Shown here piece by piece: positions 514 to 22,173 of a stretch of 48,837 nucleotides of DNA. The first letter of the stretch is position 1, and each line of letters starts with the position of its first letter. Both the position numbers and the translations under genes were made by a program. Location: NCBI GenBank assembly GCA_023150835.1, contig JAKLKB010000065.1:1-48837 (forward strand), read 5' to 3'. The notes beneath the pieces are model-generated. The model saw nothing but the letters and a program-made list of their open reading frames with translations. It was not told where the DNA came from and made no database searches. The stretch comes from Myxococcota bacterium. GTDB taxonomy: Bacteria; Myxococcota_C; UBA6777.

Positions 514-1050
514 GTGATGAAGTGGATAGCGCGGTGGTTGGGTGAGGATCGAGGGCAGTACGCAGAAGCCGAAGCGTTGTACCGCAGATATCATCCGATG
601 ATGCGGCGTCGTTGTCGGCGGATATTGCGAGATGAAGTGTTGGTGGATGATGCGATGCAAGAGAGTTTTTGGGCCTTGTGTCGGGGGTATGGGAGATTCC
701 AAGGGAATGAAGGCCAGTTGATGGCTTGGTTGTATCGGGTGACGACGAGCCATTGTTTGAAGGTGCTGGAGCGAGAACGTCGATGGGATCGGGTGGTGGA
801 AGCTGTTTGCGAAGAGAGAGCGATGTTTGGTTCGGATGTGGGGGAGTTTGAGTCGGATGTGGTGGTAAGAGAAGTCTTGTTGAAGCTGCCGCCGCTTCAG
901 AGAGAAGCGGTGTTGTATTGGTTGTTGGATGGGATGGCCCAAGAAGAGATCGCAGAGGTGATGGGAACGACACGGCATCAGGTAAGGCAGTGGCTGTCGT
1001 CCTTTGCGCAGAAAGCCAAGATCTGGATGGGATTGGAGGAGAGGGTATGA
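514..1050 (+). CDS. ECF (sigma-70 group 4) RNA polymerase sigma factor, module 1
   Basis: Region 2 (LYRRY..DDAMQESF..AWLYRVTTSHCL) and region 4 (LPPLQREAVLYWLLDGMAQEEIAEVMG) motifs; 178 aa; ATGA overlap with next gene. Confidence 0.9.
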   Translation: MMKWIARWLGEDRGQYAEAEALYRRYHPMMRRRCRRILRDEVLVDDAMQESFWALCRGYGRFQGNEGQLMAWLYRVTTSHCLKVLERERRWDRVVEAVCEERAMFGSDVGEFESDVVVREVLLKLPPLQREAVLYWLLDGMAQEEIAEVMGTTRHQVRQWLSSFAQKAKIWMGLEERV

Positions 1051-2108
1051 AAACAGAACGGATGGAACCTCCAGATGTGCGGCGAGGCCGAGAGCAGGGC
1101 GGTCACGGTAGGCTGTCGGAGTATCAGATGAGTCGGTATATGTTGGGCTTGATGAACGAGGGCGAACGATCGGCATTTGAGGTGATGTTGAAGATGGATG
1201 AGGCGGTGTGTGCGCAGTTTCAGCGTTTTCAGGCATCGTGGGAAGCCGAGAGATTTGATGAGCGACGCCATCGGATGCCTGTTTTTCCGGGTGCGTCAAG
1301 TATTCAAAATCGCCGTGTATGGGGGATCTTGCGTGCAAGCATGGCGGTCGCTGTCTTGGGGCTGGTATTGTGGGGGAGTCGATCGGTGTTTTGGATGCCG
1401 TTGGAGATGGGGCCACGGGTGCAAGGGTATCTCGTGGATGCGGGGAGAGATCTTGCGGATGCGAAGGATGCGAGGAATACGCCCGCTCCAGACACCATGA
1501 GAACGTCTGGTGTGGGAGCGGCGAAAAAGGCGAATGGTGTAGGGGCGAAGAAGAGCGAGCCGATGCGGACGAAAAAGGCGGAGGATGTAGGGGCGAAGAA
1601 GAGCGAGCCGATGCAGACGAAAAAGTCGGAGGATGTAGGGACAAAGAAGATCGGGCCGATGCGAACGAAAGGGAGTGTTGACCGCGTGTGGGCGAGTGGG
1701 ACGGAGCCGACGATGGTTGTGGCGTTGATGCGTGGAGGAAAGATCACGCAAGCGCGGTCGGGGCAGCATTTTTTGAAGGGGGATCGGCTGCGATTGGCAC
1801 ATCGGTGGGAACGGGGGGGGTATGTGTTTTGGGTGCATCGGCAAGGGAAGACGGTGACGCCGTTGTATCCGCGTGAGGGGAAGATGGAGAGCGTGCAAGT
1901 CGTCTCAGGGGAGATGATGTTGTTGCCGGGTTCTTTGGAGGTTTCGGGGGATGGCCGAGAGGAAGAGTGGTTGGTGGCTTGTTTTTCGCGGCGGCCTGTC
2001 TCTTTGGGGCGATTGCGAGCGGCCCTTGTGTCTTTGCCCAAAAAGATGGATCGTCATGCGTTGAGTGTGTGTGATCATCGTTTGCATTTTTTGGTGCGGA
2101 GAGAGTGA
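1047..2108 (+). CDS. Putative anti-sigma factor: N-terminal anti-sigma-like helix region, one TM helix, repeat linker, DUF4384-like C-terminal domain
   Basis: ATG 1047 overlaps the sigma stop (ATGA); LSEYQMSRYMLGLM..ERSAFE resembles degenerate zf-HC2 anti-sigma N-termini; TM ASMAVAVLGLVLWG; C-terminal GDRLRL..GYVFWV..LYP..LLPGSLEV..E motif pattern. Confidence 0.75.
   Translation: MKTERMEPPDVRRGREQGGHGRLSEYQMSRYMLGLMNEGERSAFEVMLKMDEAVCAQFQRFQASWEAERFDERRHRMPVFPGASSIQNRRVWGILRASMAVAVLGLVLWGSRSVFWMPLEMGPRVQGYLVDAGRDLADAKDARNTPAPDTMRTSGVGAAKKANGVGAKKSEPMRTKKAEDVGAKKSEPMQTKKSEDVGTKKIGPMRTKGSVDRVWASGTEPTMVVALMRGGKITQARSGQHFLKGDRLRLAHRWERGGYVFWVHRQGKTVTPLYPREGKMESVQVVSGEMMLLPGSLEVSGDGREEEWLVACFSRRPVSLGRLRAALVSLPKKMDRHALSVCDHRLHFLVRRE
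1523..1673 (+). repeat. In-frame 48-bp (16-aa) tandem repeat x3 in anti-sigma 1 linker
   Basis: KKAEDVGAKKSEPMRT-type units starting 1523, 1571, 1619. Confidence 0.9.
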
Positions 2109-4099
2109 TGGACCCGTGGCGTGCGCGGTTTGCATGGTGGAGAATGGGCTTCTTCCTGTGGTGTTGTGGAAGTGGAGGGCTTGTTCCCGACGTGCGACTT
2201 GCGGAGGCGTCCACGAAAGTTTCGGTGGTTCGGCGATTTGCGTTGTTGGTGGGTCAAGATGATGCAGGCGCACGTGCGCCAAGACTGCACTATGCGAGTC
2301 GGGATGCAGAAAAAATGCAAGAGCTTTTGATCTCGGTTTCAGGATTTCAGAAAGAAGATATCGTCTTACTTCGCCAGACACAGGCGCGGTCTGTGATGGC
2401 AGCGTTGGCGGGATTGCAGCGTCGGATCGCTCGGGTGCGTCGGGCGGAAAAGCACGCAGCGATCTGGTTGTTTGTGTATTATTCGGGGCATGTGAAACGA
2501 GACCGTTTGTTGTTGGGTCGCGGCAGCTTGGGATTTGCGCGGTTGCTTGGGATGATCCGAGGGATGGGGGCGGATCTACGTTTTGTGGTGGTGGATGCGT
2601 GTGAGTCAGGGGGGATGCTTCAAAAAGGCTTGACGTATCGGCGCGAAGGGTTTGCGGTGCCTTTTTTACAAGATCCGCAGATGACGCAGGGCGAGGTGAT
2701 CTTGACGGCGACAGGACAAAGCGAGCAAGCGCACGAAGATCCAACGCTCAAGGGTGGGATCTTTACACACTTCTTGATATCAGGCTTGCGCGGCGCTGCA
2801 GATCAAGATCGCGATCAGCGCGTGACGTTGGGGGAATTGTACCCGTATGTGTATCAGCGGGCTTTGCAACATTCGATGTTTTCGGTGCATGGACCGCAGC
2901 GGGCGCGTTTTGCACAAAGGCTTTCGGGGTACGGAGATCTTGTGTTGGCGCATCTTCGGGGGAGTCCAGCGCGTTTGACGGTCGAAAAAGGCGTTTCGGG
3001 GCGATTCTTTTTGTGGGACAAAAAACGCGAAAAGTTGTTTGCAGAGTGGACACACGGGCCAAAAGAATCGGCTCTCTCGGTGGCGCTGTCTGCAAAACAG
3101 TACATATTGGATTGGCGAAAAGGCACGTCATACAGTCGGATGGCGCTGGATTTACGGACCGAACGGCAGATCGTATTGAAAACCAAGACAGCAACGCATC
3201 TGGTCTGGCGTCCCGCACAAGAGTCGTCGACGGTGGCTTCGTTGGTGCGTTTTCCAAAAGAGTTGCAGGGTGACTTTGTGATCTGGGATCAGTTGCGCCA
3301 GCGGCCCTCTACGCGGGTTGCCAAACGCGCTGGCCATGCTGTTGTGTTGGAACTTCCCGCAGGAGCCTATCTGTTCGAGACACGAGGAACCCAAGGGGCG
3401 CGCCGTTATCCGTTGCGTTTGTCGACGGGGCAAGCGTTTGTGATCCCTGTAGATTGGGCTGTTGCAGAAGATACAGACGCAATCGGTGGAGAGGTTGTAC
3501 CGATGCGTTTGGAGAGGGAGGCTTTTTTAGGGCCGCGCAAGTCTTTTGGCGATCGGGAGCGGGATGGATTTTTAGTGCGATTGTACGAAGAAGTCTGGCG
3601 GCCACAAGCCGAGCAGATGCCGATGTGGGGGAGTGCGTTGGCTTGGTTAGAGGGGGAGGGATTGTTGTGGAGTGGGCGGCCTTTGGGGTGGACTCCGTTG
3701 GCTGGGTATTTGCGACTTCGCGGCGTGGTGGCCCCTGAGGCATCCATGCTTGCAGAGGCCGTTCCGATGGGTGGATACGAAGGGCAGATCGGGGCGATGT
3801 GGACGGTGTGGGAAGGCCGTTTTGCGGCGAGGGAGGGGGCAGAAGAAGGGCAGGTGCAGATCCATTTAGGCGGGTACATGGCCTTTTTACACGATCTTCG
3901 ACTGCGTGAAGCAGCAGGTCTATGGAGTGGGATCTCGTGGGGGATCGGGACAACGGCGCAGATCCATCTATCGGTGGCACGCCAACTTCGGTTGATCGGT
4001 TTGTTGGATTATCGGGGGTTGCGTGCAATCGAGGATCGCCGTTTGACTCGATGGCGCGGCGTGCTGTCTTTTTCGTTGGGATGGCTGCTGCATTTCTAG
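2105..4099 (+). CDS. Exported caspase-family (peptidase C14) protein with C-terminal beta-barrel-like domain, module 1
   Basis: RFALLVG..LHYASRDAEKM, YYSGH (His codon 2489) and VDACESG (Cys codon 2600) dyad; GGIFTHFLISGLRGAAD; signal-like N-terminus; ends with amphipathic strand and terminal F (SFSLGWLLHF); GTGA overlap with upstream stop. Confidence 0.88.
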   Translation: MMDPWRARFAWWRMGFFLWCCGSGGLVPDVRLAEASTKVSVVRRFALLVGQDDAGARAPRLHYASRDAEKMQELLISVSGFQKEDIVLLRQTQARSVMAALAGLQRRIARVRRAEKHAAIWLFVYYSGHVKRDRLLLGRGSLGFARLLGMIRGMGADLRFVVVDACESGGMLQKGLTYRREGFAVPFLQDPQMTQGEVILTATGQSEQAHEDPTLKGGIFTHFLISGLRGAADQDRDQRVTLGELYPYVYQRALQHSMFSVHGPQRARFAQRLSGYGDLVLAHLRGSPARLTVEKGVSGRFFLWDKKREKLFAEWTHGPKESALSVALSAKQYILDWRKGTSYSRMALDLRTERQIVLKTKTATHLVWRPAQESSTVASLVRFPKELQGDFVIWDQLRQRPSTRVAKRAGHAVVLELPAGAYLFETRGTQGARRYPLRLSTGQAFVIPVDWAVAEDTDAIGGEVVPMRLEREAFLGPRKSFGDRERDGFLVRLYEEVWRPQAEQMPMWGSALAWLEGEGLLWSGRPLGWTPLAGYLRLRGVVAPEASMLAEAVPMGGYEGQIGAMWTVWEGRFAAREGAEEGQVQIHLGGYMAFLHDLRLREAAGLWSGISWGIGTTAQIHLSVARQLRLIGLLDYRGLRAIEDRRLTRWRGVLSFSLGWLLHF

Positions 4100-4129
4100 G
4101 TCGTTCACGGCTTAAAACTTTTTTCTCTG

Positions 4130-4245
4130 TAGGACTTACGCAGTTCGATACGAAAAAGGCCCATGTTCGGGCGCGGGCGGTTCGCGAACCGCCCCTACAA
4201 CGGGTTGATTCTTCACGCTTTCCCTCTTCAACTGCGTAACTCCTA
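4130..4245. mobile_element. MITE family A copy (TIR TAGGACTTACGCAGTT / AACTGCGTAACTCCTA) with internal GTAG-type REP hairpin
   Basis: 15/16 matching terminal inverted repeat; internal GGGCGGTTCGCGAACCGCCCCTAC palindrome. Confidence 0.8.
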
Positions 4246-4252
4246 TCTCTGG

Positions 4253-4403
4253 TAGGGCTTACACGGTTGGATAATGTTTGGGGTTTCACCCCCACACCCC
4301 ACGAGAGGGCAAAGCCCTCTTGACCCCGTATTGGCGGGGCGAATAGAGGTTTTTCAAACCAACGACGTCGCCGCTTGGGCGTCCTCGAACGCGGGGGTTT
4401 TTT
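4253..4403 (-). mobile_element. MITE family A copy (twin-hairpin core)
   Basis: Reverse complement matches core AAAAACCCCCGCGTTCG..CAAGCG..TTGAAAA..ACGGGGTCAAG..GGGG..CCCCA; TAGGGCTTACACGGTT end. Confidence 0.75.
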
Positions 4404-4497
4404 CTTCATCGTCATCTCTTAGATGAGCGTAGGCAGTTTTTTCTCTAGCTAAGTTTTTTATTCTTTTACATATTTCTTCTTTGGATGGGAGGCTAGA

Positions 4498-5082
4498 ATG
4501 CGGGTTCGAACCTTTGGTGGATGGGTGCGTTTGGGCGCGTGGTGTGGTGTTTGTTGGGTGGTTATGGGGGTCGCAACGCAGGCGAATGCTTCGGATGCAA
4601 GGCGGTTTGCAGAAAAACTGCATCGAGAGAAGCTGCATTATGGATTCAACAAGGAGGGGAAAGTGGCTTTGCTCAAAGGGGACAAAGAAGCGCATCTGGG
4701 CGTGTTGGGTTCGGGCTATCACAGTTTGTTTCAAGGTTCCGAAGTGGCGCAAAAAGCGGGAAGTCAGGCCCATGCGATGGCGATCAGTGCGACGATCTTG
4801 TCGATCTTGGGCATCGCTGCAAGTGCGACAGGGGCCGCGATCTTTGCGGTTGATCCACAAGGCTTTTTGCCTGAACATCGGCCCGCTCGGGCTGTGTTAA
4901 ATGCCTCGCTTTTGTTTGGTGGTTTGGCCTTGTTGTATGGGTCGATGCTGCTCAACATCCAAGCACAAGAAAAAACCTATTTTGCGATTAAAGCGTACAA
5001 TCGGGATTTAGAGAAAAAGGCGCTGCGCGAATGGAAGCCACACAAACCCCCTCACGGACATCGGCTGTTTCGGGCTGATTGA
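4498..5082 (+). CDS. Hypothetical exported/membrane protein
   Basis: GGGAGG SD then ATG; signal-peptide-like N-terminus (..ATQANA); two hydrophobic helices. Confidence 0.65.
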   Translation: MRVRTFGGWVRLGAWCGVCWVVMGVATQANASDARRFAEKLHREKLHYGFNKEGKVALLKGDKEAHLGVLGSGYHSLFQGSEVAQKAGSQAHAMAISATILSILGIAASATGAAIFAVDPQGFLPEHRPARAVLNASLLFGGLALLYGSMLLNIQAQEKTYFAIKAYNRDLEKKALREWKPHKPPHGHRLFRAD

Positions 5083-5155
5083 TTTGTTTTTCGATCGAGG
5101 GGGGCGGTGAACAGTAGCGCATCGGCTGTTTCGGGCCGATTGATTTGTTTTCGAT
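5059..5155. repeat. ~37-bp direct repeat (period 61) duplicating the 3' end and stop of the 4498 gene
   Basis: CATCGGCTGTTTCGGGC(T/C)GATTGATTTGTTTT at 5059 and 5120. Confidence 0.9.
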
Positions 5156-5159
5156 GCTG

Positions 5160-5325
5160 TAGGAATGATGCAGTTGGCAGCCCCCGTGTTCGTGGACTTT
5201 CAAGCGACAGGGTCGTTGTTTTGAAAAACCGTGATCTCTTCGCCAACACGGGGTCAAGGGAGCCGCGCTAAGGAGGCGGGGCGTGGGGTGCCAACCCACA
5301 AAACCATCGAACTGCGCAAGTCCTA
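5160..5325 (+). mobile_element. MITE family A copy
   Basis: TAGGAATGATGCAGTT ... AACTGCGCAAGTCCTA termini enclosing the conserved core. Confidence 0.8.
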
Positions 5326-5384
5326 TGTTCAAACAAGACCAGCGGCAGCGAAAAATGGAGCGAAAAAAAGAAGGAGACAGCGTC

Positions 5385-5981
5385 GTGGATGTGGTGGAAG
5401 AAAAGAAGCGTTTGCGGGTTGCGTACCAAGCGAGGAGATCGCAGTTAGAGAGGGAGTGGGTTGCACAAGCAAGCGGCAGGATCAGCGATCAAGTCGTTGG
5501 TTTGGGGCTTTTGGAGGGTGCGCGTTGCGTGGGGGGATTTTGGCCGATCGGGCATGAAGTGGATCTGCGGCCAGCATTGGAGCATTTGGAGGCGCGGGGG
5601 GTGGTGATCGGTTTGCCGGTAGTGGTGGGGCCGCGCCGTCCGTTGTGTTTTCGGCGTTGGACGCCACAGACACCGATGCAGCGGGCTGTTTTTGATGTAA
5701 TGATCCCGACCGAAGCAGCCGATGTCTGTGTTCCAGATGCGCTGTTGGTGCCGTTGTTGGCGTTTGATCGAAAAGGGTACCGTTTGGGGTACGGTGCGGG
5801 TTATTATGATCGAACGTTGGAGGCGATGCGCGCCCAAGGTCCGCTCTTGACGGTAGGAGTCGCTTACTCTATGCAAGAGCATCCAAGTTTGCCTGCCGAT
5901 GGGGGTGATCAGCCGTTGGACTGGGTGTTGACAGAGCAAGGCTTGTTGTGTACGAGCGGCAAGGCAGGGGAACGCCCGTGA
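5385..5981 (+). CDS. ygfA: 5-formyltetrahydrofolate cyclo-ligase
   Basis: EKKRLR..RR N-terminus; LLVPLLAFDRKGYRLGYGAGYYDRTL; DQPLDWVLTE; GTG start chosen 8 nt after AAGGAG (ATG 5355 is an alternative). Confidence 0.92.
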   Translation: MDVVEEKKRLRVAYQARRSQLEREWVAQASGRISDQVVGLGLLEGARCVGGFWPIGHEVDLRPALEHLEARGVVIGLPVVVGPRRPLCFRRWTPQTPMQRAVFDVMIPTEAADVCVPDALLVPLLAFDRKGYRLGYGAGYYDRTLEAMRAQGPLLTVGVAYSMQEHPSLPADGGDQPLDWVLTEQGLLCTSGKAGERP

Positions 5982-6011
5982 GATGGCTCGGATGGTGCGA
6001 AGGAGCGTAAG

Positions 6012-6917
6012 GTGACGCAAGAGAAGATTCGGGAAAATGTGTTGGATGAGCTGTTGATGTTGCTGAATCTGGAGAAGATTGAAGAAAATATCTTTCGAGG
6101 GCGCAGCCAAGATCTGGGGTTTGGAAATATCTTTGGGGGGCAGGTTTTGGGACAAGCGTTGTCTGCGGCGCTCCAGACGGTTCCCAAAGATCGGCGCGTA
6201 CACAGCCTGCATGGGTATTTTTTGAGACCGGGAGATCCCGCGATGTCCATCGTGTACGAAGTGGACTGTATCCGCGATGGCAAGAGCTTTACGACCCGTC
6301 GTGTGGTGGCGATCCAAAAAGGGCAAGCGATCTTTTCGATGTCATCGTCTTTTCAGGTCGAAGAATCGGGCTTTGAGCATCAAGACACACCGCCAGAAGT
6401 CGTCGGACCCGAAGGGCTCGAATCGTGGTTGGACTGGGCGCGTGGCATGGAAGATCGTATCCCCCCAAATATCCGGCCCAAACTGCTGTGTGAACGCCCG
6501 ATCGAGATCCGAGTGGTCAATCCTGTGAACCCCTTCAATCCGAGGAAACAACCTCCTGTACGTTATTCTTGGTTTCGCGCCATCCACCCCATGCCTGACG
6601 ATCCTGTGATCCATCGCTACATGTTGGCGTACGCTTCGGACTTTGGTCTGGTTTCGGCCTCGCTGTATCCACACGGCCACACCTATTGGGAACCCGATAT
6701 GCAGGTGACCAGCCTCGATCATGCGATGTGGTTTCATCGAGAGTTTCGGATGGATGAATGGTTGTTGTACGTCACGCAAAGCCCCTCTGCCAGCGGGGCG
6801 CGTGGCTTGAACTTTGGCAAGATCTACCAACACGGCCAACTGGTCGCCTCGACCGCTCAAGAAGGTCTGATCCGCTACCGTGGGAATGAGAGCAGCCGCT
6901 CTTCTCAATCCCCCTAA
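6012..6917 (+). CDS. tesB: Acyl-CoA thioesterase II
   Basis: FGGQVLGQAL, HSLHGYFLRPG, RDGKSFTTRRV, LAYASD, SLDHAMWFH, QEGLIR motifs; AAGGAG SD. Confidence 0.95.
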   Translation: MTQEKIRENVLDELLMLLNLEKIEENIFRGRSQDLGFGNIFGGQVLGQALSAALQTVPKDRRVHSLHGYFLRPGDPAMSIVYEVDCIRDGKSFTTRRVVAIQKGQAIFSMSSSFQVEESGFEHQDTPPEVVGPEGLESWLDWARGMEDRIPPNIRPKLLCERPIEIRVVNPVNPFNPRKQPPVRYSWFRAIHPMPDDPVIHRYMLAYASDFGLVSASLYPHGHTYWEPDMQVTSLDHAMWFHREFRMDEWLLYVTQSPSASGARGLNFGKIYQHGQLVASTAQEGLIRYRGNESSRSSQSP

Positions 6918-7028
6918 TACGATCTCCGAGTGATGTGTACACGAAGGGTCGTGCGTAGGTGCCCTGTTATCGGGCAGCCACAGGGGGCTGCCCCTACATC
7001 TTTACGCTCACAACGGGCGGATCTCGTA
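6918..7028. mobile_element. MITE family B copy (TIR ~TACGAGATCCGC) with GTAG-type hairpin
   Basis: TACGATCTCCG ... CGGATCTCGTA termini; GGGCAGCCACAGGGGGCTGCCCCTAC; inserted right after the tesB stop. Confidence 0.75.
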
Positions 7029-7183
7029 TAACCCATATCGCCCTTGCGGTCGAACTCGGCGAAGTATCCGAGCAGCCGCTCTTCCCAACCCCCCTAACCC
7101 CGCCGCTTTTCGTCTGCACTCCCTCCTGTTTTTTTACAATTATTCACCCGCTTTTTTTCGCAAGTACACTCTTCAGTACAGAG

Positions 7184-7350
7184 AGGAGTTGCGCGGATGC
7201 CAAAAAGGCCGTGTTCGTGGCACCCCAAGCGAGAGGGCCGTTTGTTTTTAAAACGCCTGCTCGTTTCGCCGATACGGGGTCAAGGGGACGCAGTTCCCTT
7301 GTGGGGCGTGGGGTGAAACCCCACACAACAGATCCAACCGCGTCGCTCCC
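7184..7350 (+). mobile_element. MITE family A copy upstream of sigma 2
   Basis: AAAAAGGCCGTGTTCG..CAAGCG..ACGGGGTCAAGGGGACGCAGTTCCCTTG..TGGGGTGAAACCCCACA; degenerate TIRs. Confidence 0.75.
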
Positions 7351-7402
7351 GATCGATGCACAACGCAGATCCCCAACAACGTGTGGCAGGTGGTGTTTGG
7401 GA

Positions 7403-7912
7403 ATGGATGAGCAAGTAGTTTTTGATGATCTCGTTCGGACATATACGGATCGTGTGCGTGGTTATTTTTGGCATGCGTGGCGGCTTTCGGAAGCGGATGT
7501 AGACGAACTCACCCAAGAAGCTTTTTTGGAAGTGTGGCGTGCTTTGCCCGGTTTTCGGTCGGAATGTAGCGTGTTGTGGTGGATCTTGCGGATATGCCGT
7601 CGGATGGCATGGCGGTATGTCAGAAGGCAGCAGATCCGCAGCTTTTTTGGGCTGCGCTCCAACGCACCGCTTGAACATGAGGCGGCGGACGAACGGTTGG
7701 GCGCAACCCTTGAAGCGCGCAGCGAGATTCGCGCTTTGATCTCCGCGATGAAGAGGCTTACTGCTACCGATCGCGAGTTAATTTACCTGCACTACGTCGA
7801 AGACTTGAAGGAACCCGAGATGGCCGAGATATTGGAGATCAACAGACACACGCTTCACACGCGACTCAACCACGCAAGGAGGCGCTTGCATCGGCTCTTT
7901 AGAGCATCCTAA
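7403..7912 (+). CDS. ECF RNA polymerase sigma factor, module 2
   Basis: FDDLVRTY..DELTQEAFLEVWRALPGFRSECS..WILRI; region 4 LTATDRELIYLHYVEDLKEPEMAEILEIN..TRLNHARRRL; ATG 7403 (upstream ORF extension runs through MITEs). Confidence 0.9.
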   Translation: MDEQVVFDDLVRTYTDRVRGYFWHAWRLSEADVDELTQEAFLEVWRALPGFRSECSVLWWILRICRRMAWRYVRRQQIRSFFGLRSNAPLEHEAADERLGATLEARSEIRALISAMKRLTATDRELIYLHYVEDLKEPEMAEILEINRHTLHTRLNHARRRLHRLFRAS

Positions 7913-8017
7913 GAGTGAGCGGTTGGGTCGTTCCTATCACCGCAAAAAGTGATCGTGATCAGGCACGACGCGCCAGTTGAGATGGACAGCTTCACAAAGA
8001 AGCCTTGGGTAGGGAAG

Positions 8018-9010
8018 ATGATCGTGGTCAAAAAACAAGACGAAACAGAAGATGTAAATACCTCGAAAGAATCTGAGTTCTCGGATTTTTTGAGAGAGGC
8101 GATGCAAGACCCAGCTTTCGGTGTCCCTCGGCCCTCCGCAGATCTGCAACAACGGCTGCGTGCCATTCCACAACAACACCCCCGATCTGCCCCGCGTTCT
8201 CGCACGATGTGGGCGGCATTGTTTCCGATCGCAGGAGTGGCCGCTGTGTTGGTGTTCCTTTTCATTGGGCAACCGCCGATCGACCCGATCTCCTCGACTC
8301 CTTCGATGCTTCCTCCACCGATCCCCCCGCCAACACAACGCATCTCCCATCCGTCGGTCGTAAGGCGCGATACGCTCCCCACGCTGCGCAGAGTCGAGCC
8401 GCCCGTAGCTCGACGCGACACACCACCAACATTGCGTAGAGTCGAGCCGCCTGTCGTTCGGCGTGATACACCACCAACGTTGCGTAGAGTCGAGCCGCCT
8501 GTGTTGCGTCGCATGGCGGCTTCTCCTTCGGGACTTGTCGCCAAAGGCACCTTATGGGAGCCCTTGTACGCTCACCAACGAGGAGCAGGACTGCCTAGAC
8601 AATCGAGGGTCTTGCGCAATGGTGTGGTCTTGTACCCCGGCGATCTTGTCCAGTGGACCTACAAGATCAGCGCGCCTGTCTATGTTTTTTTGGTGGGAAT
8701 GAACCGAGAAGGCGAGATCTATCCGCTGTTGCCGCAGCCTCCCGAACCATCTGCCATCCGTCTCGAACGCCTCCAAGGCTCGCTACCCCAAGCGGACGGA
8801 GAAGCACGCGCCTTCCGCTTGGATCACTACGTCGGTGCCGAGCGTTTCTTTGTGTTCCAATCCTCGAAGCCCTTCTCTTTTCAAGAAGTAAAAAGAGAGT
8901 TGCTTTCTGCTTGGGAGATTAGTCAGAAAAAGATAGAAAAGATGGTTCTTGTCTCCACTGTTTGGTCGATCTATACTGTGTACTTTGTCAAAAAAGCACG
9001 CGAAGATTGA
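8018..9010 (+). CDS. Putative anti-sigma factor with TM helix, Pro/Arg repeat linker and DUF4384-like domain
   Basis: Directly after sigma 2; TM WAALFPIAGVAAVLVFLFIG; C-terminal LYPGDLVQW..VYVFLVG..GEIYPLLP..FRLDHYVGAERFFVFQSSKP; start uncertain (7949/7982/8018). Confidence 0.78.
   Translation: MIVVKKQDETEDVNTSKESEFSDFLREAMQDPAFGVPRPSADLQQRLRAIPQQHPRSAPRSRTMWAALFPIAGVAAVLVFLFIGQPPIDPISSTPSMLPPPIPPPTQRISHPSVVRRDTLPTLRRVEPPVARRDTPPTLRRVEPPVVRRDTPPTLRRVEPPVLRRMAASPSGLVAKGTLWEPLYAHQRGAGLPRQSRVLRNGVVLYPGDLVQWTYKISAPVYVFLVGMNREGEIYPLLPQPPEPSAIRLERLQGSLPQADGEARAFRLDHYVGAERFFVFQSSKPFSFQEVKRELLSAWEISQKKIEKMVLVSTVWSIYTVYFVKKARED
8356..8512 (+). repeat. In-frame 48-bp (16-aa) repeat x3 in anti-sigma 2 linker
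   Basis: RRDTPPTLRRVEPPVV-type units, diverged mostly at synonymous sites. Confidence 0.9.
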
Positions 9011-9037
9011 TCGAAAAAACAGTAGAGAGCATCTAAA

Positions 9038-10846
9038 ATGGGAAGAGCAAGCAGCCGTCGGGATGTCAAACGAGCGTTGAAGTGCGTTTCTCTTGTGATC
9101 TTTGGGACTCTTTTGTGGGGAGCACAGGCCGAAGCTTCGACCGATCGAAGCGCCGAGGCAGACCAGCACAAAAAGCCCCGAACCAACAGCAATCCCAACA
9201 AACATCACAAGGGGCGCGATGTTCGCTTGGCGCTGGTGATCGCCAACGAACACGGATGGGGAGCCGAGCCGCGCCTTGCTTATGCTGTCAAAGGTGATCT
9301 TCGTCGGATGCGTGATGCTTTGCGGCATCTGGGCTTTTTTTTACCCCCTGCTTTGGTGTTGGGAAACCAAGATCCTCAAGCCATCCGTACTGCTTTTGCG
9401 ACTGTCAAGCGTTTGATTCAAGAAAAAGGCGTGACCACGTTTTTCTTTTATTATAGTGGCCATGCCGACAAAAACCACCTTCACACAGGGCCTCCACCGA
9501 TGTCTTGGGGGAGCGCATCTCCGCTTACGCCAGACCCCAAAGCCCCGATCTCTTACGCAGAGTTTGCTTCCTTTCTACAAGACTTGCGGATCCCAAGGCG
9601 CTTTGCATTGATCGATGCTTGCTATAGCGGCATGATCGCCAAGCATTTTGGTAACGCTGTGAACTTTCGCCGCGCCATCGCGCAACAACAACTCCCCAAA
9701 GGCGTCGAGCCGATCTTTGTGTCGGCGGATCTCAAAAAGTACCTACATCAAAACGATCCCAACGCGCAAACCATCCATATCCTTGCATCGACCGCAGATG
9801 ATCAACTCGCCTTTGAATCCCAAAAGCTGAAAGGATCGATCTTTACACATCATTTTTTGCGTGGACTCGCAGGGCGCGCAGAACGCGGCAACAAAGGGAC
9901 GATCTCCATGGACGATCTCGCCAACTATGTGCGTCCCCTTGTGGCCCGCGACACTCACGGGCAAACGCCCACCGAATGGAAGCTTCATCAAGGCCGCGAT
10001 GCCTACGCCTTGGCTGCCACGTATAAAAGCATCCTTGAGATCCCGACAGCCCTCCAAGGACGTTTCAAAGTCCTGATCGGTGACGCCCAAATTTCGTGGA
10101 ATACCGCGCAACGCACGGTTGCGAAACTGCCTGTGGTCGTAGGAAAAGGCATCTTGTTCCACCAAGACGCAAAGACCAAACGCTGTCGCTCGTATGCGTT
10201 GGAGGTCGCCCCTTCGCAACGGATCGAGCTTCTACCCGCGCTTTGGCAGGAGATCCCCTGCCATCAAATAGGTGTGGGAGCCAAAGGAGAGCCGATCTTG
10301 CCCATGCACTTGATGGAACAGGCCGACCTGACAGAAGATTGGAGCCTCGAATTGCAGGGCGGCATGTGGGGCAGCAACGGTTTGTTTAAACTTCCAGAAG
10401 GCGATCGGATGGGGATGTTGTCGGTGGGGATGCGTTGGCGCTATGCAGCGATCTCGGTGGGCACGGGGCTTGGACCTGTGTCGTTTCTGCAACAAGACGG
10501 AACCTCGAAGGCTTTTTGGCAGAACTGGTTGAACCTACGCGGTGAAGGCGGATATCGCCATCAGTGGGATCGCCTCGACTTGTTTGTCGGGGCGTATCTT
10601 GGGGTGGGCGTGTTGCTGCATGATCTCAATGAACAAGCGATCCCGTCCTTTTCTGTTCAAGGCGGGCTGTTATGCCAATTGGGGATCTGGTTGGATCAGC
10701 GATGGGCGCTGTTGGTCTCCGCAGAAGGTGGCGGGCATCCTGCCTTTGTGCAAGAAGCGCAACATCGCGTGTTTCGGTTCTTTGCGACCTACAGCCTGCG
10801 CGTGGGCGTTCGCTTTCGCTTTGGCCCCAACCGCTTACTGTTTTGA
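9038..10846 (+). CDS. Exported caspase-family (peptidase C14) protein with C-terminal beta-barrel-like domain, module 2
   Basis: Signal peptide ..LLWGAQAEA; RLALVIAN, FYYSGHAD (His 9461), LIDACYSG (Cys 9620), GSIFTHHFLRGLAG; C-terminal amphipathic strands (YSLRVGVRFRF). Confidence 0.88.
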   Translation: MGRASSRRDVKRALKCVSLVIFGTLLWGAQAEASTDRSAEADQHKKPRTNSNPNKHHKGRDVRLALVIANEHGWGAEPRLAYAVKGDLRRMRDALRHLGFFLPPALVLGNQDPQAIRTAFATVKRLIQEKGVTTFFFYYSGHADKNHLHTGPPPMSWGSASPLTPDPKAPISYAEFASFLQDLRIPRRFALIDACYSGMIAKHFGNAVNFRRAIAQQQLPKGVEPIFVSADLKKYLHQNDPNAQTIHILASTADDQLAFESQKLKGSIFTHHFLRGLAGRAERGNKGTISMDDLANYVRPLVARDTHGQTPTEWKLHQGRDAYALAATYKSILEIPTALQGRFKVLIGDAQISWNTAQRTVAKLPVVVGKGILFHQDAKTKRCRSYALEVAPSQRIELLPALWQEIPCHQIGVGAKGEPILPMHLMEQADLTEDWSLELQGGMWGSNGLFKLPEGDRMGMLSVGMRWRYAAISVGTGLGPVSFLQQDGTSKAFWQNWLNLRGEGGYRHQWDRLDLFVGAYLGVGVLLHDLNEQAIPSFSVQGGLLCQLGIWLDQRWALLVSAEGGGHPAFVQEAQHRVFRFFATYSLRVGVRFRFGPNRLLF

Positions 10847-10986: not shown

Positions 10987-12192
10987 TTAAGGGGTGGGAG
11001 GGAGGGGATCGCAAAGCCAAGAGGTGACAACAAACCATCCTGCGAGGGTGGTGATGCGGGAGGTGGTGGCGGTGCGTCGGGTGCGGTCGTCGGGATAACA
11101 TCGGCGTTGGGGATGGGAGTAGACAAAGTCGTAATCTTTGTTGGGAGCGACGTTGAAAAAGACCGCAAGTCCTGTGCTTTGGGTGGAGGTGGCGCTGCTT
11201 TGCCCGGGGTCAGGGATGTAGATCGGGCCTGTTCCTGAGGCGGGTGTCATCACGACAGTCCCGCCGACCACGGGCTTGAGGAAGGGATCGAGTTCTTGGA
11301 TCTCGGCACCGACTTGGGCCTTTGTCCAGTCGAGAGTGTTGACGCCAAGCAAAGCGGCGATCTGGGTTGCGGTGGTTTTGGTGAACATCTCCGCACGGAT
11401 TCTTGGGATGCCCCGAGAAAAAGTCTTTGAATCAACATAGAAAGGAAACATCATGGGAACGAGATCGCGCACACTATCCTCGAAGGTGACGGCGATCTCT
11501 GTATCATAGGGAACCCCTGAGAGGACGTAGCTTCCGTCTTGGGCAGAGAGAACACACGGTGTACTCGGGCGTTGGTAGAGGCAGACCTTTACACCGCCAA
11601 GTGTGGGGTTTCCGGGCGCAAAGAAGTCTGCGACGATACCTTCCAAAACAAAGGTCTTGGTGGCTTGTTCGGGAGAAGGTTCGCTGAGTGTTTCAGGAGA
11701 AAGTTCGCTGCTGTGTTCGCTTGGGGTGTCGGGAGAAGGTTCGCTGCTGTGTTCGCTTGGGGTGTCAGAAGAAAGTTCGTGGTTTTGTTGATCCGCGAGG
11801 GGTTCGTTGTGGTCGGGAAGGAGGGGTTCTTGGGCGTCGGGTATCGCGTCAGAGGTTGATTCGGAGGGGGTGGTGTCGGAGATCGGCTCGGAGGCGTCGG
11901 AGATCGATTCGGAAGGGGTGGTGTCGGGTGGGCTGGGTTCTTGGGCGCTCTCGGGTGAAGAGGGTTCGGTGGATGGTTCGGATACTTCGGTGGGTTGGGG
12001 TTCTTTGGCGCTCTCGGGTGATGCGTCGGTGGTTTTTTCGGTGGTGGCCTCGGTACTGGTGGGGACTTGGCAAGCCGACCATGTACTGACAACGAAGAGA
12101 AAGGCGATAAGAGATCCGAACCATCGGACATTTGAGAGAGGCGCGAGGCGCGAAGAAGCGGTGTACGAAGTGATGTGTTGTGTGGGCTTCAT
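10987..12192 (-). CDS. Putative lipoprotein: acidic Ser/Pro/Glu linker plus carboxypeptidase-regulatory-like beta-sandwich domain(s)
   Basis: Lipobox-like WSAC after hydrophobic stretch; long EPS-rich region with in-frame 36-bp repeats (~11695-11780); LEGIVADF..LGGVKVC..DGSYVLSGVP. Confidence 0.7.
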   Translation of the reverse strand: MKPTQHITSYTASSRLAPLSNVRWFGSLIAFLFVVSTWSACQVPTSTEATTEKTTDASPESAKEPQPTEVSEPSTEPSSPESAQEPSPPDTTPSESISDASEPISDTTPSESTSDAIPDAQEPLLPDHNEPLADQQNHELSSDTPSEHSSEPSPDTPSEHSSELSPETLSEPSPEQATKTFVLEGIVADFFAPGNPTLGGVKVCLYQRPSTPCVLSAQDGSYVLSGVPYDTEIAVTFEDSVRDLVPMMFPFYVDSKTFSRGIPRIRAEMFTKTTATQIAALLGVNTLDWTKAQVGAEIQELDPFLKPVVGGTVVMTPASGTGPIYIPDPGQSSATSTQSTGLAVFFNVAPNKDYDFVYSHPQRRCYPDDRTRRTATTSRITTLAGWFVVTSWLCDPLPPTP

Positions 12193-12240
12193 GGAATGAT
12201 CCTATTGGCGTTTGAGAGAAAGGATTGCAGCGGGTCGGGG

Positions 12241-12395
12241 GTGGTTTCGCGGATGATCGTCATGCAAGAGTTGCATCCATACAGACAACCGGCGAGAAAC
12301 AAAAAGTGGTTTCGCGGATGATCGTCATGCAAGAGTCGCATCCATACAGACAACCAGCGAGAAACAAAAAGTGGCTTCGCGAATGATCGTCATGG
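12241..12395. repeat. 65-bp tandem repeat x2.4 overlapping the stop of the 12390 gene
   Basis: GTGGTTTCGCGGATGATCGTCATG.. at 12241, 12306, 12371. Confidence 0.9.
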
Positions 12396-14174
12396 CAAAA
12401 GCCTTTCGGTGTGAAGGAGAAAGACGACGGTTTGAGTCGGGTTGTTTTGCGGCGTAGGGAAGCGAGAGTCTGCCCAAACAAGTGTAGGGGAGTTTGTGGT
12501 TCCTGAGAGAACAAAGCTGCCGTCGGGTTGAGCGAGCAAGCGCCCTTGGGCGGTCTGTGTGTGGGATCCGTGCAAGGTTCGGAAACTACGCCAGCGGCCT
12601 TGTGGATCGAGTGTTGCGAGGAAGATATCGCGGTTGCTTTGGGCTTTGTGATTGGGCGATATCGCAGCGGGGAGTTGGATATCACCTTGGAAATCACCCA
12701 AAAGAGCGATACCTTGGGAGGTTTGTGCAAGACTTTGTAGGCGTACGGCTGAAGTGGCGGTGGTGGCGGTGAGCTGTTGTGTCCATTGAAGTTTGCCTTG
12801 TGTATCCCAATGGGCGATGAATCCGCTGTCTTGGGGGGAAGAAAACAAGGAGAGATGTTCGGAAGAGAACAGTTCGCCCCGGTAGGTTCCGGCCAAGAAA
12901 ACCCCTGATGTTGCGGCATAAAGCGCTTGTGGGATCTCATCGCCTGAGACAGCATAGAAAAGATCGGCCCAGACAGGATGCCCATCGGATCGGACGTGCA
13001 TGATATAGGGATCTTGTCCGTCTGTCATGGCGCGTAGTCCGGCGCTTTTGATGGAGGGTGCAGGGAGCGTCAAGTAAAAGCGATGGGTGATGTAGAGGTT
13101 GTGCGAGGGAGGAGAGGCGGCTGTTTGAGCGAGAGCGATCTTTGGGAGGAGGAACCCTTGGGTCGCGCTTCCGTAGGCCAACGTCCAACGGTCTCGGCCA
13201 TCAAGGTCAAGCCGCGAGAGAAAGTCGGCCCCTTGATACACCGAAGGAGATGGCGTGCTGTAGAGGCGACCATCAAAAAGCAGGAGATCTTTTCCATAGA
13301 ATTGTCCGGCGACATAGAAGGCATCGCTTTCTGCGATCGCAAGGGCGCTTGCGAGGACATCACCCTCTCCGCCTGCCGAACGCGCCCACAGGACATCACC
13401 GTCTTCGTTGAGGCGCATCAGAAAACTGCTGATGCCTTTGTGCTTGGGCAGGCGATGGTTGCCGAGCGTAAGCACCGCGCTGGTGTACGTTCCGAGTAGA
13501 TAGATCCCTGCTTGTGGATGAATGGCGATGGATGTAAGGGCTTCGTCGCCTTCGGCTCCCCATACCTTGACCCATCGTGCCGAGCCTGTGGGTGAAAGGC
13601 GCAACAAAAAAGCTTGGCGGCGGTTGGCTGCTGTGTCAGTCACGGAAAGCCCCGCTAGTTCGGCTTGATCGGCATGAAGCCACCCACCGACGAGAAGGTC
13701 TCCGTTTGGGTGGCGTTGTTGATCGGTGATGGCGATGGCTTGATCGGCTCGGAAAAAGCGTATCCATGGGAGATTGGAGGGGGGTTGTTCTGCGCCGGAT
13801 TCGTGGACTGGTTCGGGGGTGTGTTCTGTGGATGAAGGTTCCGAAGATGTGGACTCTTGGGGGATTTCCGCAGGGTCATCTAGGGTGGTTTCTGGGAGCG
13901 GGAACTCGGAGGTTTCGGATGTGGAGGCATCGGACAGATCAGGTGGTAACGGCTCAGCGGAGTTGGGAGAGCGTAAGCAGAGGCCGCGAAAGCAAGAAAA
14001 TCCGTTGGTGCATTGGCGGTTTGAGCGGCATTGACCGCTTTGATTGATGCAGCCCGCCAAAGCGAACCAAGCGAGCAACGCGAGGAGGAAAAAGTGACTT
14101 GTTGATAAAAAGCCTGTGGATCTGTTCTTCGTGAAAAAGGACTGCGAGAGGAGGAAGACGTGACTTGTTGACAA
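12390..14174 (-). CDS. Putative lipoprotein: Cys-rich N-terminal module plus beta-propeller
   Basis: LLAWFALAGC lipobox; CRSNRQCTNGFSCFRGLC; repeated blades (AFLLRLSPTGSARW, FLMRLNEDGDVLWA, DIFLATLDPQGRW); start uncertain (TTG 14174 chosen because the longer ORF runs through a MITE). Confidence 0.75.
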   Translation of the reverse strand: MSTSHVFLLSQSFFTKNRSTGFLSTSHFFLLALLAWFALAGCINQSGQCRSNRQCTNGFSCFRGLCLRSPNSAEPLPPDLSDASTSETSEFPLPETTLDDPAEIPQESTSSEPSSTEHTPEPVHESGAEQPPSNLPWIRFFRADQAIAITDQQRHPNGDLLVGGWLHADQAELAGLSVTDTAANRRQAFLLRLSPTGSARWVKVWGAEGDEALTSIAIHPQAGIYLLGTYTSAVLTLGNHRLPKHKGISSFLMRLNEDGDVLWARSAGGEGDVLASALAIAESDAFYVAGQFYGKDLLLFDGRLYSTPSPSVYQGADFLSRLDLDGRDRWTLAYGSATQGFLLPKIALAQTAASPPSHNLYITHRFYLTLPAPSIKSAGLRAMTDGQDPYIMHVRSDGHPVWADLFYAVSGDEIPQALYAATSGVFLAGTYRGELFSSEHLSLFSSPQDSGFIAHWDTQGKLQWTQQLTATTATSAVRLQSLAQTSQGIALLGDFQGDIQLPAAISPNHKAQSNRDIFLATLDPQGRWRSFRTLHGSHTQTAQGRLLAQPDGSFVLSGTTNSPTLVWADSRFPTPQNNPTQTVVFLLHTERLLP

Positions 14175-14300
14175 AAAGCCCGCGTTCGTACGAGCACAAG
14201 CGACAGGATCGTTGGTTTGAAAAACCGTGATCTGTTCGCCCCTCACGGGGTCAAGGGGCGAACGTCCCTTGTGGGGTTTGGGGCAACGCCCCACAAAAAT
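14173..14300 (+). mobile_element. MITE family A core between divergent lipoprotein genes
   Basis: AAAAAGCCCGCGTTCG..CAAGCGACAGGATCGTTGGTTTGAAAA..ACGGGGTCAAGGGGCGAACGTCCCTTG..TGGGGCAACGCCCCACA. Confidence 0.75.
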
Positions 14301-14416
14301 AACCCCAGCAAATCGTATCGTTCGAGAGAGAACAAAAAAAAATGCACCCATGCTTTCCAACACACGACACTTTTGGTTAGAGTAGTCTCTCTGCCTTAAA
14401 GATGGAGTACAGCGAG

Positions 14417-18469: not shown

Positions 18470-19150
18470 TTGAGACCGATACAGTTGATCATCTTCGATC
18501 TGGATGGCACGTTGATCGATTCGTCGCATGATATCGTGGCGGCGATGCAACAGCTTCTGCGCGAGTTGTATCTTCCTGCTCTTGGTTCGGCGCAGATCAT
18601 GTCTTTTGTGGGGCAAGGCGTGGACTGGTTGGTGCGTCAGTGTTTGGCGGCGTGTGGTGTGGCAGGCGAGAATGCGCTGCGGTCGGCGGTGGAGCGGTAT
18701 CGTCAGCTTTACAGCCAAGATGCTTTGCGCTACACGCACTTGTATGTCGGGGTGCGTGAGACATTGGAGCGTTTGCGTTTGGGAGGTTTTGACATGGCGG
18801 TTTGCACCAACAAACCCGAGAGTATTGCGCGCAAAGTTCTCGATGGATTGGGGCTTTCGGGATATTTTCTGGCTTTGTTGGGAGGAGACAGCTTGGAGAA
18901 GCGCAAGCCAGATCCTGCGCCGTTGCGATTGTTGATGGAGTTATTGGATGTGGAGGCGGCGCAGACGTTGATGGTGGGGGATAGCGCGTACGATATCGCA
19001 GCGGGCCACGCAGCGGGGACGTGGACGTGTGCTGTGACGTACGGATTCCACGATATCGCAAGTGAAGGGCCTCCGCAGCCGAACGTGGTGATCTCGCAAT
19101 TTTCGGATCTGTTGTCGGTTCTTGGACTCGAAAACAGCGGAGGTGCGTGA
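18470..19150 (+). CDS. gph: HAD-family phosphoglycolate phosphatase
   Basis: FDLDGTLIDS, CTNKP, KPDPAP, MVGDSAYD motifs; AGGAGG SD before TTG. Confidence 0.88.
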   Translation: MRPIQLIIFDLDGTLIDSSHDIVAAMQQLLRELYLPALGSAQIMSFVGQGVDWLVRQCLAACGVAGENALRSAVERYRQLYSQDALRYTHLYVGVRETLERLRLGGFDMAVCTNKPESIARKVLDGLGLSGYFLALLGGDSLEKRKPDPAPLRLLMELLDVEAAQTLMVGDSAYDIAAGHAAGTWTCAVTYGFHDIASEGPPQPNVVISQFSDLLSVLGLENSGGA

Positions 19151-19441
19151 TGTCTTGTTGCGCCTCTGTTTGGATGGTGTATGCGAGTGTTTAGAACGTG
19201 CATGGGCGACACGATCGGTTGCGCCTCTGTTTGGATGGTGCGGTGCGCGTCTCTGTTTGGGTGAGGTGTCTTGAAGTGATGCGGGTTTTCTTTTAGGGTG
19301 GGGGCTTTGGTCGATCGGGTGCGCGTTGTGCGCTGCACCGTGTTTGCGGTACAGGGATGATGCAGAGGTCTGTTGGATATCTTCGTCGTCGCCTTCAAAA
19401 AAAGCGTATTTGTTTTGCAGGGATGATGCAGAGGAGGTCGT

Positions 19442-21643: not shown

Positions 21644-21690
21644 ACGCCTCTCTCGCCACTCGCACAACACTTCCCGTTCCAAAAAGAGTC

Positions 21691-22015
21691 CACGGAAAAC
21701 ACGGAAAGCACGGAAAGAAAACAAGCTGTGTCTACAGAACGCGGCTACGGGAAGTTTCACGCTTTGGAAAACACGGAAGGCACGGAAAGAAAACAAGCTG
21801 TGGCTACAGAACGCGGCTGCGGGAAGTTTCACGCTTTGGAAAACACGGAAGGCACGGAAAGAAAACAAGCTGTGGCTACAGAACGCGGCTACGGGAAGTT
21901 TCACGCTTTGGAAAACACGGAAGGCACGGAAAGAAAACAAGCTGTGGCTACAGAACGCGGCTACGGGAAGTTTCGCGCTTTGGAAAACACGGAAGGCACG
22001 GAAAGAAAACAAGCT
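21691..22015. repeat. 72-bp tandem repeat x~4.5
   Basis: GGAAAACACGGAAGGCACGGAAAGAAAACAAGCTGTGGCTACAGAACGCGGCTACGGGAAGTTTCACGCTTT, near-identical copies, no spacers. Confidence 0.95.
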
Positions 22016-22173
22016 AAAAAAAACAGCGCAGCGTTTTTGGGGGTTCTGGCATCTCAATCGGCATCGTTTTGGCGTGGTCTATCTTTTCGTGAATTCGCGT
22101 CAAGGAATGCCTGAAAAAGGTGCTCTTTCTTCTGCGTAATGCCGTCCGAAAAAAGTGTAAGGTGAGGTCGCTG

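Follow-up and report, generated by a model that had tools for sequence, protein, structure and literature searches.

The bacterial caspase homologues treated in the papers cited here are mostly proteases of defence or cell death, and the exported myxobacterial ones have no known substrate there. Operons of a sigma-70 factor and a C14 (caspase family) protease, several per genome, are already known: sigma-70/metacaspase operons were noted in 2012 in Myxococcus xanthus DK1622, Anaeromyxobacter, Haliangium, Sorangium, Ralstonia and Fibrobacter, and in the accessible text they are described by gene linkage only, with no mention of an anti-sigma factor, a DUF4384 domain, a barrel, a motif or a mechanism (PMC3501461). 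The stretch of DNA analyzed here, a window of 48,837 nt from a Myxococcota bacterium (contig JAKLKB010000065.1 of assembly GCA_023150835.1, forward strand), holds two co-directional triads in which the gene for a sigma factor of the extracytoplasmic function (ECF) class is followed by those for a single-pass membrane protein, the candidate anti-sigma factor, and a caspase (Table 1). A Lys-Gly dipeptide lies just before the DUF4384-like domain of each membrane protein and in the loop after the catalytic Cys of each caspase, and a preliminary description of the window proposed that it is both the autoactivation site and the anti-sigma cut site. Among homologues the motif [KR]G (Lys or Arg, then Gly) is conserved far beyond chance. 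It is real across the family and likely a shared cut site, which would make the system a variant of protease-gated anti-sigma signaling. The 2012 operons, likened by description, probably belong to the same family.

Judged by analogy with the described systems, there are precedents for each piece of the mechanism proposed below, and none for the whole. In M. xanthus, the ECF sigma factor DdvS is paired with the single-pass anti-sigma factor DdvA, whose periplasmic caspase-fold domain has been proposed as the site-1 protease; DdvA without its periplasmic domain is degraded by RseP (PMC11506125). DdvA differs in carrying the protease as its own TPR-CHAT domain and in regulating an island of CBASS (cyclic oligonucleotide-based antiphage signaling system) and CRISPR genes (PMC11506125), whereas the modules here have a separate C14 protease with a predicted barrel, a DUF4384 periplasmic domain and a shared K/R-G site. 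A Pfam scan of the window anti-sigma proteins (353 aa, with a DUF4384-like domain of ~130 aa) gave no CHAT or TPR match, and thus no factor of the DdvA type. In the Craspase system of type III-E CRISPR (Csx29/Csx30/RpoE), a caspase-fold protease likewise cuts a sigma-binding protein in its linker and sheds the C-terminal domain, and one group of Csx30 proteins ends in DUF4384. Its protease, however, is a cytoplasmic, RNA-triggered CHAT protein that is linked to CRISPR and cuts at M↓K in Desulfonema ishimotonii (the arrow marks the cut bond); no transmembrane helix or barrel is described in the accessible text (10.1101/2022.08.17.504292).

The SAVED-CHAT/PCaspase/PCi/PCc-sigma system of Haliangium ochraceum also encodes a C14 caspase together with a sigma factor and an inhibiting partner that is cut, and activation is by cleavage. 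It differs in that a second protease and cyclic tri-adenylate (cA3) are the activators, the caspase is promiscuous and the context is defence, with no envelope localization described in the part of the paper at hand; the inhibitor PCi is CI-2-like and was reported to be without homologues (10.1101/2023.06.23.546230). No SAVED-CHAT, Cas7-11/Csx29 or cas family was found among the 31 window open reading frames (ORFs) scanned against Pfam, a search that did not extend to the other ORFs or the rest of the genome. Two further proteases resemble the present ones in specificity: LcCaspase cuts its neighbour LcHydrolase at putative conserved R↓G sites (10.1101/2025.11.14.688446), and the orthocaspase MaOC1 activates itself after a basic residue, Arg219 (PMC7475262). 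These are, respectively, a death effector and a protease of unknown substrate, they prefer Arg and not Lys, and no sigma factor accompanies them in the accessible texts.

The four motifs first pointed out in the window, and a fifth before the barrel-like region of caspase 2, are borne out by translation at the positions given in Table 1. KG is too frequent in the window to prove anything (2, 4, 1 and 8 copies in the four proteins versus 2.2, 2.0, 0.6 and 2.6 expected), so the case rests on homologues, which were taken from six related genomes and from metagenome loci. Of the 432 matches to the caspase 1 domain, the best 120 were used for counting. All 120 have [KR]G in the post-Cys loop (104 KG and 13 RG at Cys+9, three KG at Cys+8), within the consensus D-x-C-x-S-G-A-[LIF]-[TI]-R-x-K-G-G, and so do all 18 that are left when sequences of more than 60% identity over 50 residues are removed. 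In the caspase 2 subfamily a helix is inserted after the Cys, yet all 11 relatives (P0121-P0131) retain the loop [KR]G, now between Cys+21 and Cys+27; it is thus the motif that is conserved, not its spacing. Both window linkers agree with this, LQKG of caspase 1 lying at Cys+8 and LPKG of caspase 2 at Cys+26, beyond the helical insertion. A third [KR]G is found at ~Cys+203, after a spacer domain, in 116 of the 120 caspase 1 homologues (shuffle mean 30.5, maximum 47) and in 10 of the 11 caspase 2 relatives, where it corresponds to the VGAKG before the barrel. Conservation among homologues, the check that the preliminary description had called for, is seen at all three positions, the anti-sigma site (below) included.

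For the membrane partners, a profile was built from the seven DUF4384-like domains of the same genome, cut after the motif to avoid circularity, and run over 111 loci in which sigma, DUF4384 and caspase genes were the ones sought. It gave 90 matches; two truncated ones were dropped and the remaining 88 collapsed to 73. [KR]G occurs within the 26 residues before the domain in 67 of the 73 partners. The mean over 1000 shuffles was 23.1 and the maximum 38, and in the next segment upstream, taken as a control, the motif is found in 15 of 71. In the six partners without it, a Lys or Arg is still present but is followed by Ser, Ala or Asp (by eye). A transmembrane helix precedes the motif in 68 of the 73 partners, and all 49 loci with room for a sigma gene have one. 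In the loci of caspase 2 type, 16 of the 20 untruncated partners have [KR]G (by eye; two truncated rows excluded). Of the 67 anti-sigma sites, 59 have Lys and 8 have Arg at P1, the residue before the predicted cut. P3, two residues earlier, is Arg in 39 of these anti-sigma factors and in 53 of the 71 loops, giving loop and anti-sigma sites a common consensus near T-R-x-K-G. A cut after this P3 Arg is disfavoured, since the residue is absent from three of the four motifs first named and from many anti-sigma factors. The site Lys lies 6-17 residues before the DUF4384 domain (6-8 in 45 of 67), yet 5-114 residues after the transmembrane helix; the fixed distance on one side and the variable one on the other tie the site to the DUF4384 domain.

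At 50% identity the large partner family comprises 11,378 clusters with E<=1e-3; the stricter limit of E<=1e-10 leaves 6,424. KG precedes the domain in 147 of the 147 single-domain matches of sufficient length among the best 150 partner clusters, a count biased because the profile used for it included the motif. Of the remaining three, one is too short and two are DUF4384 repeat proteins without the motif. These two, P0138 and P0216, are anti-sigma-like and carry tandem DUF4384 domains (four in P0138), with KG before none; they are possibly uncleavable or decoy forms.

Seven modules of sigma factor, membrane protein and caspase are present in the genome itself: two lie in the window, and contigs C225, C75, C231, C205 and C113 have one apiece. 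Each of the seven carries [KR]G shortly ahead of the DUF4384-like domain in its membrane protein and KG in the loop of its caspase. In the C231 module (genome G000, 18648-22394; locus L022) the caspase gene is divergent from the sigma and anti-sigma genes, and its product ends in hydrophobic helices instead of a barrel while keeping the loop and third KG sites.

The label DUF4384-like, given at first to both window partners, needs some qualification. Anti-sigma 2 matches DUF4384 (PF14326) at E 9e-5 over aa 229-308, below the cut-off (22.9 and 26.4 bits versus 27). Anti-sigma 1 has no Pfam DUF4384 match but is homologous by tblastn (E 6e-16 and 1e-15) to the paralogues on C225 and C75, which pass the cut-off; three paralogous anti-sigma factors pass in all. 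The motifs adjoin the domain, as had been seen, though they lie before it and not inside it, ~15 residues ahead of the first strand in anti-sigma 1 and ~6 in anti-sigma 2. Anti-sigma 1 also matches the anti-sigma family NF052375, weakly and far below the cut-off (E 0.0014). An HxxxCxxC motif occurs in 20 of the 73 relatives and in three of the seven paralogues of the genome, and in neither window anti-sigma. Both window linkers have been lengthened by 48-bp repeats rich in Lys or Arg, so that ~90-100 aa separate the transmembrane helix from the site, versus a family median of 17. That the long linker compensates for the third site missing from caspase 1 is unsupported: anti-sigma 2 is also long and caspase 2 keeps the site. 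A search of solved structures with the DUF4384 alignment gave no match below E 0.9; in the ESM Atlas, three clusters, unnamed or weakly DUF4384, were found at 0.86-0.89 and serve as leads only.

The proteases belong to the C14 family by three marks: PF00656 above the cut-off in both, the caspase fold and a His-Cys dyad. Four residues, the His, the Cys, an Asp in alpha1 and the Asp at Cys-2, do not vary in the aligned caspase sequences (63 of 63 and 54 of 54), and the alpha1 Asp aligns with that of metacaspases. These two Asp positions set the specificity for a basic P1 in MALT1 (Asp365/Asp462) and TbMCA2 (Asp95/Asp211) (PMC4357240). Both window caspases thus carry candidate S1 residues that are acidic and, from the alignment, suited to a basic P1. 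In an AlphaFold2 (AF2) model of the caspase 1 domain (predicted local distance difference test, pLDDT, 85.7), which has the MALT1/caspase fold (MALT1 TMq 0.60), the KG falls in the sole long stretch with pLDDT below 50. For caspase 2 (model pLDDT 83.2), confidence drops below 50 in two internal stretches (151-186 and 360-372), each with one KG, and the protease domain matches AtMC4 (Z 21.0; root-mean-square deviation, rmsd, 3.0 over 211 residues) and MALT1 (Z 20.8, rmsd 3.2 over 212).

Caspase 2 consists of a signal-peptide-like N-terminus, the C14 domain, a spacer domain and a predicted 8-stranded OmpA-like barrel, which matches NspA (Z 16.8, rmsd 2.7 over 147 residues), the OprF barrel (Z 15.8), OmpW (Z 15.4) and OmpA (E 2e-8). 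The C-terminal region of caspase 1 is probably a barrel as well. Both ends of OmpA-type barrels face the periplasm; the protease domain would therefore be in one compartment with DUF4384, which comes after the only transmembrane helix of its protein. Caspase 2 is accordingly predicted to be anchored in the outer membrane with its protease domain in the periplasm.

One basic-Gly motif in three exposed loops, together with a protease built for a basic P1, is most simply accounted for by that protease cutting there. The explanation we prefer, and consider moderately probable, is that K/R-G is the common K↓G cut of the periplasmic Lys/Arg-specific caspase that each operon encodes, made in its own loop and in the anti-sigma factor, where it would be the site-1 step before RseP. 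The exported caspase would be held by its C-terminal barrel, of which the fold is predicted for caspase 2 and the periplasmic side follows from topology. An envelope signal would activate the caspase, with cutting of the loop site and, where present, of the third site, which would free the caspase from the barrel. The anti-sigma factor would then be cut at T-R-x-K↓G, which the DUF4384 domain may hold at a fixed distance. Loss of the bulky DUF4384 domain would expose the membrane stub to RseP, as in the DdvA precedent, and so free the ECF sigma factor. The genome has two TIGR00054 genes above the cut-off for an RseP-type site-2 protease, of which action on these anti-sigma factors is predicted. 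Each cleavage, the order of events and the signal are thus ones that we infer; the dual role first proposed for the Lys-Gly bond fits the conservation, the nature of the S1 residues, the disorder of the loops and the compartment that caspase and anti-sigma factor are predicted to share, and the cleavage itself stays a prediction.

Several points weigh against this explanation. Cleavage is a prediction, and the anti-sigma role is assigned from position and topology. The premise that characterized homologues cut after Arg or Lys and process themselves holds in part: MaOC1 does so after Arg219 (PMC7475262) and PsCaspase strictly needs Arg (10.1101/2024.10.24.620036). On the other hand, PCaspase is promiscuous and is cut and activated by another protease (10.1101/2023.06.23.546230), KrAvs12 has a putative Asp site (10.1101/2025.11.14.688446), and MALT1, of which the loop is disordered without ligand, needs no loop cut for its activation (PMC4357240). 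In the accessible parts of the papers examined, the characterized bacterial caspases are Arg-specific, with two promiscuous (10.1101/2023.06.23.546230, 10.1101/2024.10.24.620036). The third site is mostly Arg (87 Arg and 29 Lys of 116) and the other two mostly Lys. The third site is missing from caspase 1 and from its three closest orthologues, which have a duplicated spacer instead (window 2975-3450 in caspase 1), so release from the barrel is not universal. Conservation alone is no proof of a cut site, because 113 of the 120 homologues also keep an RG that lies within the folded core (G-L-R-G-A, Cys+60); furthermore, yeast/fungal type I metacaspases (PDB 4f6o, 7qp0) have S-T-K-G a few residues after the catalytic Cys, aligned with the loop site. 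Among the partners, four of the 20 of caspase 2 type lack [KR]G, and [KR]G is not depleted elsewhere in the anti-sigma linkers (10 of 108 basic residues versus 12.7 expected). In independent pairs, which were too few, neither P1 (K/R) nor P3 (Arg) of the caspase was seen to co-vary with that of the partner (p 0.5-1); the raw P1 table, in which kinship is uncounted, has 57 K/K, 5 R/K and 3 R/R of 65. Finally, seven paralogous modules that share one motif would need insulation from one another, for which docking through DUF4384 is a guess.

The alternative that survives best is a pseudo-substrate or bait, in which the motif occupies the S1 pocket and is cut slowly or never. The loop KG would auto-inhibit the caspase, the KG-DUF4384 arm would inhibit it across the periplasm, and loss of contact would be the signal, on the model of PCi, which is both cut by PCaspase and its inhibitor (10.1101/2023.06.23.546230). 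The near-identical loop and anti-sigma motifs fit mimicry as well as cleavage, and the MALT1 loop is ordered by ligand without being cut (PMC4357240). Still, Gly at P1' with variable residues beyond it is the reported pattern of cut sites such as R↓G (10.1101/2025.11.14.688446), and the third copy, at the barrel boundary, is easier to understand as a release cut than as an inhibitor; we consider a bait unlikely. The preliminary description had allowed the DUF4384-like domain to be either a presenter of the substrate or a bait, and presentation is favoured by the Lys spacing tied to the domain.

The invariant acidic S1 candidates of the caspase already account for the basic P1, which weighs against a tripwire in which some other trypsin-like protease (of a host, prey, competitor or phage) cuts K/R-G first, arming the caspase and/or removing DUF4384. 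PCaspase is indeed activated by SAVED-CHAT and not by itself (10.1101/2023.06.23.546230), and many proteases could reach a basic-Gly site in a disordered loop, but we rate this as quite unlikely.

Improbable, too, is that R-x-K-G is a docking or structural motif, a binding element or a domain-starting turn, with the signal passed by binding as in TonB-dependent cell-surface signaling and the caspase acting on other substrates. The conserved RG in the folded core and the position of all three sites at borders between domains or subdomains, where Gly occurs often, would agree with this. Against it, the same motif stands before three unrelated folds, Lys and Arg interchange at one position while the neighbours vary, and the DUF4384 repeats of P0138 and P0216 fold without the motif, which is therefore not part of that domain. 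Self-cleavage of the anti-sigma factor by an N-O acyl shift, or a chance dipeptide, is highly improbable: self-cleaving anti-sigma factors have been described (PMC11506125), Ser or Thr directly follows the Gly in both window anti-sigmas and KG is frequent within the window, but the acyl shift was rejected on finding Ser, Thr or Cys after the Gly in only 15 of 67, and chance is excluded by the shuffles.

Taken further, the cleavage reading points to a family of envelope-spanning switches (the 6,424 clusters) in which a barrel-borne caspase is both sensor and site-1 protease. A single R-x-K↓G code in loop, tether and anti-sigma factor would drive self-activation, membrane release and the induction of sigma. 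For caspase-fold proteases in general, DUF4384 would be a domain that presents the substrate and is shed, and bacterial caspases would have a non-lethal signaling role. This joint reading is advanced tentatively, at a little under an even chance. The motif names the exact bond in three places, the cognate substrate and a read-out, sigma activity. If the cleavage reading is true, i) a caspase joins the list of site-1 proteases; ii) DUF4384 gains a function; iii) the sigma/metacaspase operons of 2012 are explained; and iv) a Lys/Arg-Gly-specific protease with a genetically paired substrate is on offer. No description of the motif or pathway was found in the literature searched, in which subscription journals are thinly covered and from which preprint supplements, possibly bearing on cleavage sites, are absent; the accessible parts of PMC8999054 and 10.1101/2025.01.12.632604 hold nothing on either.

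Table 1. Features of the two triads, in window coordinates (TM, transmembrane)
Feature	Position	Strand	Remarks
ECF sigma factor 1	514..1050	+	Sigma70_r2 E 6e-12; Sigma70_r4_2 E 6e-10; TIGR02937 above cut-off
Single-pass anti-sigma candidate 1	1047..2108	+	353 aa from ATG 1047; overlaps sigma stop and caspase start
TM-like stretch, anti-sigma 1	1317-1373	+	aa 91-109
48-bp tandem repeat, anti-sigma 1 linker	1518..1670	+	3.2 copies; only the last copy has Lys then Gly
Anti-sigma 1 site MRTKG	1659..1673	+	Lys208-Gly209; predicted cut K↓G
DUF4384-like domain, anti-sigma 1	1713..2105	+	predicted periplasmic
Caspase 1 (C14 family)	2105..4099	+	Peptidase_C14 E 3e-9; His129, Cys166; S1 candidates Asp67 and Asp164
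Caspase 1 loop site LQKG	2618..2629	+	Lys174 = Cys+8; in pLDDT<50 segment 137-154 of model
ECF sigma factor 2	7403..7912	+	Sigma70_r4_2 E 6e-11; Sigma70_r2 E 2e-8
Single-pass anti-sigma candidate 2	7949..9010	+	start codon uncertain
TM-like stretch, anti-sigma 2	8213-8269	+	aa 89-107
48-bp tandem repeats, anti-sigma 2 linker	8381-8502	+	
Anti-sigma 2 site LVAKG	8534..8548	+	Lys199-Gly200; predicted cut K↓G
Caspase 2	9038..10846	+	Peptidase_C14 E 1e-14; His142, Cys195, Asp87, Asp193
Caspase 2 loop site LPKG	9692..9703	+	Lys221 = Cys+26; in pLDDT<50 segment 151-186 of model
Third site VGAKG	10274..10288	+	Lys416-Gly417; spacer/barrel border, predicted release site; pLDDT<50 segment 360-372
Predicted 8-stranded outer-membrane beta-barrel of caspase 2	10325..10822	+	8 long strands in model

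Caspases and DUF4384 proteins were also seen apart from such modules. Locus L142:3071-14046 (G000 C203:23070-34045) clusters exported fusions of a caspase and DUF4384 with DUF4384 proteins that stand alone; no sigma gene was seen there. Its motif is a variant (by eye): two caspases have K-S-[LM] at Cys+7 and the DUF4384 proteins have K-T-[LV]-[VL], which looks like a K↓[ST] code in place of K↓G. An exported caspase fused to an FGE-sulfatase-like tail is encoded at G000 C182:307-2328, where no sigma module was seen (by eye), and a degenerate caspase copy that has lost the Asp before the Cys stands beside a reverse-transcriptase-like gene at G000 C63:19051-20229 (by eye).

No promoter shared by the seven sigma genes was evident by eye within 150 nt upstream. 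Intergenic tandem repeats are present upstream of sigma 1 (21 bp x 3.4, 204-275) and at 12241-12394 (65 bp x 2.4). Adjoining module 2 (10987-17062), three long exported-looking proteins without a Pfam match are encoded at 10987-12192 (-), 12390-14435 (-) and 14402-17062 (+), with Cys-rich linkers, acidic Pro/Ser linkers and propeller-like repeats.

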